DNA of 64,000 nucleotides from a virus. The stretch spans positions 23,549 to 87,548 of the IMG/VR virus record IMGVR_UViG_3300042898_002521. One strand, 5' to 3'. The notes beneath the pieces are model-generated. The model was not told the DNA's origin. It saw only the letters and a list, made by a program, of their open reading frames with translations, and made no database searches. Position 1 is the first letter of the stretch; the number at the start of each line of letters is the position of its first letter. Below are positions 3,207 to 19,232 of the stretch, in pieces. The position numbers were made by a program, and so were the translations under genes.

Positions 3207-4235
3207 TTACCTTGCTGTTGACCTAAACTCAGTACCTGCGTAAACTGCCCAGCCATCCATGATATGAATATTTTCAATACTAAAATCGTTGGCACCTTTA
3301 AAGTCGCCTGCTGATTTGTACCAAACTAGACCCATACCTTGTTGCCAGTCTTCGTACTGTAATACTGGGCGTTCATCAGCTTTAATCCCGCCTTTAACGG
3401 AAGGAACTGCGCCATCAATACGGCATAAGCAACCTGGGCTATACGCACCGTTTTGAACAGGACCTGCAAGTGTATCGTGAGTCTTGTAATGCAAATCCAT
3501 GCGGTGTGAATGACCGTAAACAGTAGTGTACATAGGCTCTTTACTTACGTACTTTGCCGCTGTAGAACCGTTAGAGTTGGCGGTCACGCCGTGGCGTGCT
3601 ACAAGACGATCGTTAATCCAAAACTTATCTGCTGGATACCCGTCTACATAGGTTACGCCAATATCGTCAAACCTAAGCAAATGAGGAATACTCATAACGG
3701 GAGTATCACTACCAATTTGTTTCATACGTGAACTAGCCATTGCGTTTAAGCCCACGTATCTTACAAGACGGCAATCATGGTTTCCTTCAATAAACACAAT
3801 TTCTGCGTCAGGGGAGATTGCTCTTTGACCAGCAATGTAATCATGACCAGCTTTTAAGGACTCATTAACAGTGTTAAAAAATGCATTTTCTTGAGCATAC
3901 TTACCAAACATAGGTAGGTCAATAGTATCTCCAAGATTAATAATTTGATCAATTCCGTATTCTTCTTCTAAAGTAGCCGTTACTTGCATGGCAACATTAA
4001 TAGCATTTATATCGTGGAATGGGTCTAAAGAACCGTCTTCATAACGACGGTATCCAATTTGGGTATCTGGCAATAGAACTGCCAATTTCCAATCGGTTTT
4101 GCCTTTTTTATTTTTAGTCTTTGTGGTTTTAGGCAATTTAGCGGCATTTACTGGTTTGAGAGTTGTTGACTCATCTACTTGTGGCTCGTTTAACGCAGCC
4201 ATAATGATGTCGATAAACTCTATTGTGTTTGACAT
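3207..4235 (-). CDS. Calcineurin-like metallophosphoesterase
   Basis: Motifs PDTQ, NLGD, EGNHD, HG, GHSH in canonical order. Confidence 0.85.
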   Translation of the reverse strand: MSNTIEFIDIIMAALNEPQVDESTTLKPVNAAKLPKTTKTKNKKGKTDWKLAVLLPDTQIGYRRYEDGSLDPFHDINAINVAMQVTATLEEEYGIDQIINLGDTIDLPMFGKYAQENAFFNTVNESLKAGHDYIAGQRAISPDAEIVFIEGNHDCRLVRYVGLNAMASSRMKQIGSDTPVMSIPHLLRFDDIGVTYVDGYPADKFWINDRLVARHGVTANSNGSTAAKYVSKEPMYTTVYGHSHRMDLHYKTHDTLAGPVQNGAYSPGCLCRIDGAVPSVKGGIKADERPVLQYEDWQQGMGLVWYKSAGDFKGANDFSIENIHIMDGWAVYAGTEFRSTAR

Positions 4236-13941: not shown

Positions 13942-14508
13942 TTATAATTTTTTAAACCAAACTTGCGAGTTAGCCACTAAAAGTTCTATTAAATCCTTAC
14001 AAATATGGTGAAAAGCATCAACTCCTGGGGCTGGGTCATAGTATGAACCCTTACCTGATGCCCAAGTGTAGTCATCAAACGCAATGATTCCCCCAGGCTT
14101 AAGTAACTGAAAAGCGTTAAGCCCGTCTTTAACAGTTTGACTAGCCGTGTGATCACCGTCAATGTAAATAAAATCATACTCATCTGATTGCTGATAGTAT
14201 TCATAGAAGAAACAATCGCTAGTCATTTTCCATTTGCGAATTGACTTATTATCTTTATGGCGAGAATCGTAAACAGATTCAACTTTAGTAAAATCTATTT
14301 GCTCGTGCGCATCTTCCTGACTACCCTGCCAAGTATCAACGTCATCAAGTTCCCATTTAGTATTGTTTGCAATCCACTCAGTAGCATCTCCTGTGTAAGC
14401 ACCAATTTGTAAAGCTTTTATACTGGAGTTACTACGCATTTTTTTAGGCAGTAAAGTGTCAAAGTTGTCTTTGGCAGTAATGTTAAACCAGTTGGGAAAA
14501 TCAGACAT
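13942..14508 (-). CDS. Class I SAM-dependent methyltransferase (Methyltransf_24-like), leaderless
   Basis: LQIGAYTG, VDTW, YDFIYIDGDH, LKPGGIIAFDDY; TACTAT -10 box 6 nt before ATG. Confidence 0.85.
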   Translation of the reverse strand: MSDFPNWFNITAKDNFDTLLPKKMRSNSSIKALQIGAYTGDATEWIANNTKWELDDVDTWQGSQEDAHEQIDFTKVESVYDSRHKDNKSIRKWKMTSDCFFYEYYQQSDEYDFIYIDGDHTASQTVKDGLNAFQLLKPGGIIAFDDYTWASGKGSYYDPAPGVDAFHHICKDLIELLVANSQVWFKKL

Positions 14509-14721: not shown

Positions 14722-16416
14722 TTATCTCCTTGCTAACGAGGTGGTAACTCCACCAACAATTACTTGTCCAACAAGAACCACAGCTACTGTGCCTTGTTGA
14801 GCGGTCTTTCTAATTTCTTTTGGTAGGTCTGCACCTACGTTGGAAATAGCTTTAAGGGCTTTTTCTGGGTCTGTGAATACTGTGGCAAGAAGTTCTGCTG
14901 GGTCTTCAAAGATTTCAATAGCGTCTGCAATTTCTGCAAGCAAAACCACACCGTTTTCTAATGTGATCGGTTGGTCTGGAGGCAAATCTTCGTAATCCAA
15001 ACCAGACTCTTCAAATACATCAGCGGGAATGGCTGTATCTTCGTACGCGGCTACCAAAACATCAGATAAAAATTCTTTTTCATCTTCAGTTAAAACCACA
15101 GTAGGGTCAAAAGTATCAAACAGATTTGTTAATTCTTCTTCAGTAATCTCTCCATCAGACAAAAAAGCATCAATTACATCAGCCGTATCCGCTGCAGAAA
15201 TTGAACCGTCAGATAGTGCTTCAGAAACAAGTTCTGTAGTTTCTTCTGCGGATGTTATAGTTGGTTCTATTGTAGGTTCAGGAAATGGTGATTCACTTTG
15301 AGTAGGTTCAGGTATTGGCGTTGGCTCTGGGTCCAGAGGTGGCTCAACACTCGCAGTCGGTTCAGGCTCTGGAGTCTGTGTTTCTACTGGCGTTGGTACA
15401 ACAACTTCAGGAGTTGGTTCAGGTGTTAAAGTTTCTGAAGGGCTTGGGGTTGGCTCTGGGGTTGGTTCTGGGGATGGCGTTGGTTCAAGGCTTGGTGTTG
15501 GCTCTGGCGTGGGTGTTACTGTTGGTTCTGGTGTCGGGGTGGGACTAGGTTCCACAGGGCACGTCTGATTCCACATAATTACAGACCCGTCCCAGCAAGT
15601 AATGTCTGGTGGCGTAGGCGGACATTGAGCGTCCCAGCTAACTGAAGTACCGTCCCAGCACTCAAGTGGTGGAGGTTGTTGAGGGCAGGTTTGGCTCCAA
15701 GTAATCCATGACCCATCCCAACACTGTGTATCAGGCGGTACGGGTGGGCAAGTCTCATTCCAAGCTACGGTAGACCCATCCCAGCATTGGCCTGGAGGGG
15801 GCTCTGGAGGGCACGTAGAGGTCAAGGGAATGACAGACCCATCCCAGCATGACTGCATCTCTACAGGAAGCCCACCGTTGACGGTAAAGGCCTCAGAGAT
15901 GGTTACAACGTCTGTGTTAGGGGCAAATCGGATACCACGCCGCAAGTCTGCAGGAAGCCATCCTGTGGTTTCTACAGTGCCCGACCATGAAGGGTACCTG
16001 GCTATATCTACAGTTAATTTAATTTCAGTTATTGCTCCAGTTGATTGTGGGTAAGGTCGAACCTTCCAAAGCACACAAAAACCTGTGTTGTTAACGCCAT
16101 AACTTAAACTAGTACCCTCACCAAAAGTTACCCAGTCATACCCAGCAAGGGAAATAGATGGGGTATTAGGGTAGGAACTAAAATTAGCGTCAGGAGTACC
16201 AAACGTAAGCGTTCCATTAGTAGTTACATACGTAATGTCATAGGTAGTATCACCTAGTGGTAATGAAAATGGCAAAATCATTTGATGCGCAGCGTCATCT
16301 TCCCGCGTCCATGAGTAAGTGTCACAGGGAGCATCTACCACTGCGTAAGCGGGCACAGCGTTTAACGGAAAAGCAAATGCAAATGCCAGGGCAGCAAAAA
16401 TTTTAAAGGATTTCAA
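14722..16416 (-). CDS. Secreted, C-terminally anchored surface protein with five CWDG repeats and a Pro/Thr/Glu linker
   Basis: Signal peptide ending AYA; 5 x CWDG-x8-CP repeats of 21 aa; PTPE repeats; acidic domain; hydrophobic tail followed by RR. Confidence 0.8.
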   Translation of the reverse strand: MKSFKIFAALAFAFAFPLNAVPAYAVVDAPCDTYSWTREDDAAHQMILPFSLPLGDTTYDITYVTTNGTLTFGTPDANFSSYPNTPSISLAGYDWVTFGEGTSLSYGVNNTGFCVLWKVRPYPQSTGAITEIKLTVDIARYPSWSGTVETTGWLPADLRRGIRFAPNTDVVTISEAFTVNGGLPVEMQSCWDGSVIPLTSTCPPEPPPGQCWDGSTVAWNETCPPVPPDTQCWDGSWITWSQTCPQQPPPLECWDGTSVSWDAQCPPTPPDITCWDGSVIMWNQTCPVEPSPTPTPEPTVTPTPEPTPSLEPTPSPEPTPEPTPSPSETLTPEPTPEVVVPTPVETQTPEPEPTASVEPPLDPEPTPIPEPTQSESPFPEPTIEPTITSAEETTELVSEALSDGSISAADTADVIDAFLSDGEITEEELTNLFDTFDPTVVLTEDEKEFLSDVLVAAYEDTAIPADVFEESGLDYEDLPPDQPITLENGVVLLAEIADAIEIFEDPAELLATVFTDPEKALKAISNVGADLPKEIRKTAQQGTVAVVLVGQVIVGGVTTSLARR

Positions 16417-16481
16417 TGCCAGTTCTCTCCTAAGGGCAATACATAAAGTTTACCCGAAGAAAGAATAATAATCTTGGCTTG

Positions 16482-16553
16482 CTCCCCGCCGTGGACTTGA
16501 ACCACGAACATTTCGATTAACAGTCGAACGCTCTGCCATTGAGCTAGCAGGGA
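16482..16553 (-). tRNA. trnN: tRNA-Asn (GTT), CCA not encoded
   Basis: Full cloverleaf: TCCCTGC/GCGGGGA acceptor, GCTC/GAGC D-stem, TTCGA-CTGTTAA-TCGAA anticodon arm, CGTGG-TTCAAGT-CCACG T-arm. Confidence 0.95.
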
Positions 16554-16557
16554 TTAG

Positions 16558-16636
16558 TGGAGCAGTCGAGAGTCGAACTCGATTCCTAACATTTCCGACA
16601 TGCGGAGTTAATGCCAGTCGATACCAAATCTGCCCC
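16558..16636 (-). ncRNA. ssrA: Mini-tmRNA: tRNA-like domain only, no mRNA-like domain
   Basis: GGGGCAG/CTGCTCC-A acceptor with G3:U wobble; stemless D-loop ATTTGGTATCGA; helix CTGGCATT/AATGTTAG capped by TCCG-CATGT-CGGA; GAA linker; TCGAG-TTCGACT-CTCGA T-arm. Confidence 0.85.
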
Positions 16637-18783: not shown

Positions 18784-18812
18784 AAAAAGAAAACCCACCC
18801 TTTGGGGTGGGT
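18784..18812 (-). terminator. Intrinsic terminator
   Basis: ACCCACCC-CAAA-GGGTGGGT followed by TTTCTTTTT. Confidence 0.8.
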
Positions 18813-18827
18813 CATCTTTAGTAAAAA

Positions 18828-19232
18828 CTATGCGTCTAGAATTGCCTGTGGATTAAGACCTGCGCCTTTTTTCCAGCCTGGACCCTTTTGAAGTTCCATG
18901 TGAAGATGTGGACCCGTGACATTGCCTTCGGCTCCAACCTTCCCAATTACATCTCCAACTGCAAGAGCTTGACCAACCTTGACGTTATTGGAAGATAGGT
19001 GAGCAAAAAGAAGGTGTCCACCTGCAACTTTCATTAATACGGAGTGTTGACCAAAGGCAGCACCCCAGCATTGACCAACTTTGACTACCTTGCCAGCTAC
19101 AGGAGCAACAACTACAGCACCCGTTGGAGCAGCAAAGTCTACTCCTTCATGCTTTCCGCTGGACCATCGTTTCCCCGCGATACCCCAAGGTGTCGTGACC
19201 TTATACTTTTTATCTTTCATTGGTGAAGCCAT
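18828..19232 (-). CDS. M23-family peptidase (candidate endolysin)
   Basis: HEGVD and GPHLH zinc motifs, AHL. Confidence 0.9.
   Translation of the reverse strand: MASPMKDKKYKVTTPWGIAGKRWSSGKHEGVDFAAPTGAVVVAPVAGKVVKVGQCWGAAFGQHSVLMKVAGGHLLFAHLSSNNVKVGQALAVGDVIGKVGAEGNVTGPHLHMELQKGPGWKKGAGLNPQAILDA

Follow-up and report, generated by a model that had tools for sequence, protein, structure and literature searches.

A phage-borne gene for a tmRNA reduced to its tRNA-like domain, and its family in divergent phage lineages

What is the short RNA element that lies just ahead of a tRNA-Asn gene on the minus strand of a lake-water virus genome, and what might a phage do with it? Trans-translation operates in nearly all bacteria and serves as a target for antibiotics, and the original prediction held this element to be a tmRNA stripped of everything but its tRNA-like domain (TLD). 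The DNA analyzed here, called the window, makes up the right-hand 64 kb of a virus record in IMG/VR that measures 87,548 bp and has a completeness rating of 91%; the window's GC content is 43%, and every gene in it lies on the minus strand. Window DNA was found in 20 sequencing runs, all of them DNA runs from lake-water or freshwater metagenomes. The sequence quoted in the prediction (minus strand, 16636-16558) is present letter for letter.

The gene occupies 16558-16636 on the minus strand and measures 79 nt from its 5′ end to the discriminator A (16558, RNA position 79); CCA is not encoded, and CUA stands directly 3′ of the discriminator. Its acceptor stem, read from the sequence and from the alignment to the Rfam tmRNA model (RF00023), joins the 5′ strand GGGGCAG (16630-16636) to the 3′ strand CUGCUCC (16559-16565), that is, RNA positions 1-7 to 72-78, with G3 opposite U76, which is G3:U70 in tRNA numbering. 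G3:U70 is the identity pair of alanyl-tRNA synthetase (AlaRS). A stemless D-loop follows, AUUUGGUAUCGA (16618-16629, RNA 8-19), consisting of GG and UCGA(C) and aligned by cmscan to the conserved 5′ TLD of the RF00023 consensus with a posterior probability near 1. It leads into helix 2a, which has 8 bp in the predicted fold (16610-16617 with 16586-16593; RNA 20-27 with 44-51) and is capped by a bulged AAC and a 4-bp hairpin with a 5-nt loop (16594-16609, RNA 28-43), standing where the pseudoknots and the tag reading frame of a tmRNA would be. The linker GAA (RNA 52-54) and the T-arm UCGAG-UUCGACU-CUCGA (RNA 55-71), both placed by the RF00023 alignment, fill 16566-16585, and the T-arm loop UUCGACU is of the GUUCGANUC type of tmRNA TLDs. 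Acceptor stem, discriminator A, D-loop, helix 2a, G-A linker and T-arm all fall on conserved TLD columns with posterior probability near 1, and the minimum-free-energy fold has the same anatomy (-26.2 kcal/mol, z = -2.39; 1 of 200 shuffles equally stable). Every anatomical statement of the original prediction (G3:U, A discriminator, stemless D-loop, 8-bp helix 2a, 3-nt linker, T-arm) is upheld by this alignment and fold.

The match to RF00023 runs end to end, 16555-16636 aligning with model positions 1-374; it scores 61.7 bits, where the gathering score is 47, and has E = 1e-21 for the 64-kb window. As had been expected beforehand, both ends of the model are matched around one large deletion; 14 nt stand for 306 central model positions, which together with the fold bears out the claim that a 16-nt hairpin has taken the place of the pseudoknots and tag frame. 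Judged as a tmRNA, the RNA thus scores above the gathering score with both model ends matched, possesses the alanine identity set (G3:U70 with discriminator A73) and has the TLD architecture, namely a stemless D-loop with GG and UCGAC, helix 2a, the G-A linker and the T-arm. An mRNA-like domain (MLD) is missing: the strands of helix 2a are separated by just 14-16 nt, with no resume codon, tag frame, stop codon or pseudoknots. Because the MLD is absent, the RNA belongs to the TLD-only subclass and is no functional transfer-messenger RNA; as its gene is carried by a phage and encodes the complete TLD without an MLD, it is of the type represented by mycobacteriophage DS6A.

Close relatives of the virus keep this gene. 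A collinear 93-kb record (L017), 98% complete, is 89-90% identical to the window around the element, and its mini-tmRNA agrees with the window's at 76 of 79 positions; the three changes either lie in the loop or preserve pairing (G:U to A-U, U-A to U:G). Comparison of the window, L012/L017 and a further relative, L025, shows two differences at paired positions, G22 to A (which turns G:U into A-U) and A45 to G (U-A into U:G), besides two in the loop, and in L025 the mini-tmRNA is 96.6% identical while the flanking and downstream genes are about 72% identical. Contigs from three other lake-water metagenome runs cover the mini-tmRNA with zero differences, and in one 6.7-kb lake contig all 4 differences among the 1001 nt compared are outside both RNA genes.

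A wider family emerged from a pattern scan of IMG/VR. The pattern specified the 5′ TLD, a gap of 20-50 nt and the T-loop only, leaving the 3′ half unconstrained, and it returned 46 loci with 37 distinct sequences of 63-90 nt and the same architecture, which form 33 lineages at 85% identity. A 7-bp acceptor stem is completed outside the pattern in all 37. Invariant in 37/37 are G1-C72, G2-C71, G3:U70, G4-C69 and A73, whereas pairs 5 and 6 of the stem are free to vary and take all pair types; the linker A53 is likewise invariant. Over a 19-pair consensus, 97.0% of cells are paired, against 68.1% in shuffled alignments (0 of 500 shuffles reach the family value), and covariation scores 0.717, where shuffles give 0.147 and sliding the partners by 1-3 columns gives no more than 0.117. 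Compensatory changes were seen at 12 of the 19 consensus pairs, 6 of the 7 modelled helix 2a pairs among them; the T-stem is paired in 100% of cells, with covariation at 4 of its 5 pairs. The central cap is of varied length, from a bare loop (loop only in three members) up to 30 nt. RF00023 gives one end-to-end match in 46 of 47 viral records (66-93 nt, 49.5-79.5 bits, all above the cut-off); in the 47th, the mini-tmRNA sits at the extreme end of the record. Since the window's gene has 36 further distinct homologs with covariation, chance is excluded, and the gene at 16558-16636, established by model match, fold and these homologs, is real, is under selection and encodes a TLD-only tmRNA.

The same data bear on two readings that would deny the element such a role and that, taken jointly, are very improbable. 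The first, by which it would be a functionless, decaying ssrA remnant such as an attP-type fragment from integration into a host tmRNA gene, has some background in its favor, since integration often takes place at tmRNA genes and ssrA fragments can be present in phages (PMC9004378, PMC11915505). Yet both TLD halves are present and precisely paired, the compensatory changes touch 12/19 pairs, the mini-tmRNA is better conserved than its flanks, and neither an integrase nor a serine recombinase was found in the 91%-complete genome; moreover, the mini-tmRNAs on contigs of metagenome-assembled genomes (MAGs) described below are no copies of the full tmRNA TLD of the same MAG. The remnant reading is contradicted by the covariation and is the most remote of all those considered here; across the 37 distinct IMG/VR sequences the homologs covary, with no decay. 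In the second reading, scarcely more credible, the element would be an aberrant tRNA-Ala with its anticodon in the central hairpin, as the program ARAGORN calls it, tRNA-Ala(CGC), when thresholds are relaxed to 80% (-ps80). At default thresholds, however, ARAGORN makes no call at the element or at any other family locus (0/37 members), so that the forecast that a tRNA finder would miss or miscall it proved right on both counts. The forced tRNA model has a poor stem and, on inspection, C rather than U before the anticodon; relaxed calls across the family scatter over more than 20 types of 'anticodon', with Ala in 4 of 26; the central cap ranges from no hairpin to 30 nt; and the stable fold has a 5-nt loop and no D-stem. 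An ordinary or D-stem-less tRNA-Ala was rejected, there being no cloverleaf with D-stem and 7-nt anticodon loop and no conserved anticodon, and the element does not do better as an ordinary tRNA than as a tmRNA. Permissive annotation pipelines may mislabel mini-tmRNA genes as alanine tRNAs.

Several features of the family records deserve mention in their own right. Directly 3′ of the discriminator, CCA is encoded in 11 of the 37 family genes and CTA in 8, the window's included; the full tmRNA gene of an Ilumatobacteraceae MAG (L074) likewise ends ...CTCCACTA. Second, weaker end-to-end RF00023 matches exist in two records, G039 (with L040) at 18788-18863 and G025 (with L026) at 4049-4119, with 35.8 and 22.3 bits, at most a few kb from the main mini-tmRNA; each could be a diverged second TLD-like gene or an odd tRNA. 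ARAGORN also calls a 'tRNA-Pyl' (CUA anticodon, amber-suppressor type) at L031:1859-1932 and L038:1365-1438, in a 133-kb viral record with a mini-tmRNA, which may be a stop-codon-recoding phage.

Is the mini-tmRNA a phage gene throughout? The same pattern, run as a control on 596 Gb of prokaryote genomes, gave 24 hits, of which 18 lack an acceptor stem and are chance matches, 2 fall within full tmRNAs and 4 are real elements. The latter (L055, L056, L059, L061) all sit on short MAG contigs, 4-20 kb in length, that bear the labels Saccharibacteria, Ilumatobacteraceae, Gemmatimonadetes and 'archaeon'; these are probably phage contigs binned into MAGs, because two of the four mini-tmRNAs are identical to IMG/VR viral sequences. 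As 46/46 hits in IMG/VR are real, against 4/24 in prokaryote genomes, the mini-tmRNA is essentially phage-borne. The Ilumatobacteraceae and Saccharibacteria MAGs have a full tmRNA elsewhere in the same MAG; binning is weak evidence of host. Similarity of TLDs gave no closer hint of the host, as a search of 401 sampled genomes, from the phylum of an Ilumatobacteraceae MAG, with the 20-nt 5′ TLD and up to 3 mismatches found nothing under 3 mismatches, and the recurrent nearest form has only 5′ GGGGC and the TGGTATCGAC end in common with the window's TLD. Five of the genomes matched carry an unpublished flag, and nothing stated here depends on them. The DNA polymerase (PolA) of the window phage comes closest to those of Streptomyces phages, with which it shares 39% identity. 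A freshwater actinobacterium is a plausible host, and the fit of the RNA to the SmpB and AlaRS of that host is assumed. Among 50,697 cultured phage records, BLAST found no match to the 86-nt element, and a 5-kb query matched only via the tRNA-Asn.

The genomic setting suggests how the RNA would be made. The mini-tmRNA and the tRNA-Asn occupy a 229-nt gap within the replication module, where transcription passes through genes for a DnaB-type helicase, a primase, an M23 peptidase, an SNF2 helicase and an NlpC/P60 peptidase before reaching the mini-tmRNA and the tRNA-Asn, and then a 564-aa protein (14722-16416, minus strand) with no Pfam or PHROG match, a methyltransferase (Methyltransf_24, 188-aa ORF, 13942-14508, minus strand) and, further downstream, a family-A DNA polymerase. 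The NlpC/P60 gene (16646-17119, minus strand; PF00877, E = 1.9e-28) is co-directional, its stop codon lies 9 nt ahead of the first G of the mini-tmRNA, and it is the likely source of read-through transcription into the RNA genes. Because no promoter- or terminator-like site around the RNA genes stands out above shuffled background, co-transcription followed by RNase P processing would be the simplest reading.

The tRNA-Asn(GUU) gene (16481-16553, minus strand; Rfam tRNA score 64 bits, CCA uncoded), the only gene that ARAGORN calls by default around the locus, is separated from the mini-tmRNA discriminator by the 4-nt spacer CUAA (16554-16557, minus strand). The tandem arrangement with a 4-nt gap that was originally pointed out is therefore real in the window, but it is not conserved as a unit in relatives. 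In L012 and L017, 30 unrelated nt stand in place of 92 nt that include the tRNA-Asn in the window, and in L025 the tRNA-Asn lies 34 nt from the mini-tmRNA and is about 80% identical to the window's; an obligate dicistronic unit is ruled out by the absence of the tRNA from the former two and by its divergence and distance in the latter. Between the window (16464-16555) and L017 (4191-4220), phages that are about 90% identical, the tRNA-Asn appears as an insertion/deletion difference. Some tRNA gene, of many specificities, is found within the fetched flank at about 40% of family loci. This neighborhood supports processing like that of a tRNA, not a specific link with Asn.

From these features the following course may be proposed. 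Read-through from the NlpC/P60 gene would place the mini-tmRNA on a transcript shared with the co-directional genes of the replication module; host RNase P would cut the 5′ ends of both RNAs, and the 4-nt trailer would be trimmed and CCA added by a host enzyme. Host AlaRS would then charge the RNA with alanine, and the charged form would bind host SmpB and EF-Tu. The TLD of tmRNA is known to be a substrate of AlaRS, to match tRNAs approximately in its binding of EF-Tu and to bind SmpB, which fills the place of the anticodon arm; a TLD-SmpB-EF-Tu complex sits in the A site of a non-stop ribosome (review, PMC8012679). The mini-tmRNA would thereby compete with the full-length tmRNA of the host for both SmpB and the vacant A site of a stalled ribosome, and since it offers no tag template, ssrA tagging and proteolysis of nascent chains would be suppressed during infection. 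Alanylation, SmpB and EF-Tu binding and inability to tag are predicted from the sequence. Charging itself appears to be selected, because U70 opposite G3 is invariant across 33 lineages, and a ribosomal step, either A-site competition or true tag-less rescue, is likely, because titration alone would need no charging and yet G3:U70 does not vary. The SmpB used would be that of the host, because no phage SmpB (PF01668) occurs in the 47 viral records, 7 of which are at least 90% complete; the same records have no full-length tmRNA (RF00023) and no RF-1/ArfB-type release factor (PF00472). When the ORFs lying up to 4 kb from 51 loci were compared all against all, no ORF family recurred in more than 3 of the 33 lineages, and no neighboring defense or anti-defense gene was conserved across the family. 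As there is neither a phage release factor nor a conserved partner gene, all later steps would depend on host factors.

Overall, we give somewhat better than even credence to the view that the mini-tmRNA is an antagonist of host ssrA tagging through competition for SmpB and the A site. Such an effect would match the one reported for the DS6A TLD-only RNA in E. coli; the gain to the phage from blocked tagging is conjectural.

A tag-less rescuer is a possible but clearly less probable alternative, overlapping with the antagonist reading and differing in that the net effect would be rescue and not blockade. Here the alanylated mini-tmRNA, with SmpB and EF-Tu, would enter a stalled ribosome and accept the nascent chain, which would be freed untagged, with one or a few added alanines, either through drop-off and peptidyl-tRNA hydrolase or with the help of an Arf-type factor of the host; ribosomes would be recycled and phage proteins spared. 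That G3:U70 and A73 are invariant in 37/37 sequences, so that charging and hence ribosome entry appear to be selected, speaks for it, as simple SmpB titration requires no charging (PMC4131195), and CDS-less tmRNAs do persist together with SmpB in jakobid mitochondria and some plastids, where they are thought to aid with incomplete mRNAs (PMC11915505). However, neither SmpB nor a release factor is encoded in the 47 phage records, the release step is hypothetical, and the sole experiment on the TLD-only type, as quoted in PMC11915505, reports inhibition. It is accordingly with reserve that one may suppose that many phage lineages free stalled ribosomes by Ala-charged, tag-less trans-translation, leaving proteins that end in one or several alanines.

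Improbable, too, is an action outside trans-translation, in which the RNA would serve as decoy or ligand for an anti-phage nuclease acting on tRNA or tmRNA, for RNase R or for a defense sensor with an SmpB-like domain. The tRNA genes near about 40% of the loci would suit a decoy, SmpB-like domains occur in the predicted RNA-targeting CoCoNuT defense systems (PMC11090510), and tmRNA fragments are part of an anti-CRISPR complex (PMC11662646). But the mini-tmRNA lacks the anticodon loop at which anti-phage tRNases usually strike, its conserved parts are exactly those relevant to AlaRS, SmpB and EF-Tu, and it has no conserved protein partner and no neighboring defense or anti-defense gene.

If mini-tmRNAs block or re-route ribosome rescue in the way favored here, they would constitute a common take-over device of phages and a natural inhibitor of tmRNA-SmpB of only 80 nt, which would be easy to test; if tag-less rescue is true instead, a widespread, unrecognized viral take-over of bacterial translational quality control would be at hand. 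The strict alanine identity pair is present in at least 33 phage lineages, and yet standard tools miss TLD-only RNAs. The window's own contribution is modest, being a well-scoring freshwater member of the family with a dispensable tRNA-Asn beside it.

The nearest known system is DS6A, listed by Hudson, Lau and Williams (2014) as 'Mycobacterium phage DS6A (TLD only)' (PMC4131195), so that the original prediction was right in ascribing a reduced tmRNA to this phage; the RNA is tmID 11587 of the tmRNA Website and goes back to Mao et al. (2009, RNA Biol 6:355). According to citations of the latter work, a molecule similar to the DS6A form strongly inhibits tmRNA whether chargeable or not, perhaps via titration of SmpB (PMC4131195), and a 2025 database paper repeats for the DS6A form that the endogenous tmRNA of E. 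coli is inhibited by it, adding CDS-less forms from mitochondria and two plastids (PMC11915505). In the literature searched, no phage TLD-only tmRNA beyond DS6A was found, and the breadth of the present family, at least 33 divergent phage lineages, goes beyond this published record of one phage case. The pipeline of the curated tmRNA database depends on hits from ARAGORN and BLAST and regards Infernal scores under 140 bits as weak (PMC11915505), and mini-tmRNAs of 50-80 bits escape it for these reasons. We found the DS6A gene at JN698994 28478-28560. Like the window's gene, it is phage-encoded, about 80 nt long and unannotated in its record, has G3:U70, discriminator A and no tag frame, and matches RF00023 end to end with the middle deleted. 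It scores 43.2 bits, under the Rfam cut-off, against 61.7 for the window; BLAST detects no direct sequence similarity between the two, and the DS6A cap, 20 nt and GC-rich, is unlike the window's. The two also belong to different phage lineages and habitats, the window coming from lake water with a PolA nearest to Streptomyces phages at 39%. Experiments have been made on the DS6A form alone, and solely in E. coli.

Set against other molecules, the window RNA shares with canonical one-piece tmRNA (ssrA, RF00023) the whole TLD (acceptor G3:U70, A73, D-loop, helix 2a, G-A linker and T-arm) but is without PK1-4, resume codon, tag frame and stop codon, and it cannot act as a message because 306 model positions are replaced by 14 nt. 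With tRNA-Ala it has the acceptor identity elements G3:U70 and A73 and the T-arm in common, but it lacks both D-stem and anticodon arm. The CDS-less organellar tmRNAs, known from jakobid mitochondria (RF02544) and as genes of about 65 bp in Mallomonadaceae plastids (PMC11915505), are likewise natural, with little beyond the TLD and no tag frame; they are the sole tmRNA of their compartment and have a matching SmpB, whereas the window RNA is virus-borne and would be brought into a cell with a full tmRNA of its own. Engineered TLD fragments, such as that in the ribosome complex with SmpB and EF-Tu (PDB 4V8Q, as cited in PMC8012679), have the same minimal design with a loop-capped helix 2a; those are artificial, whereas the window RNA is the product of a natural gene under selection.
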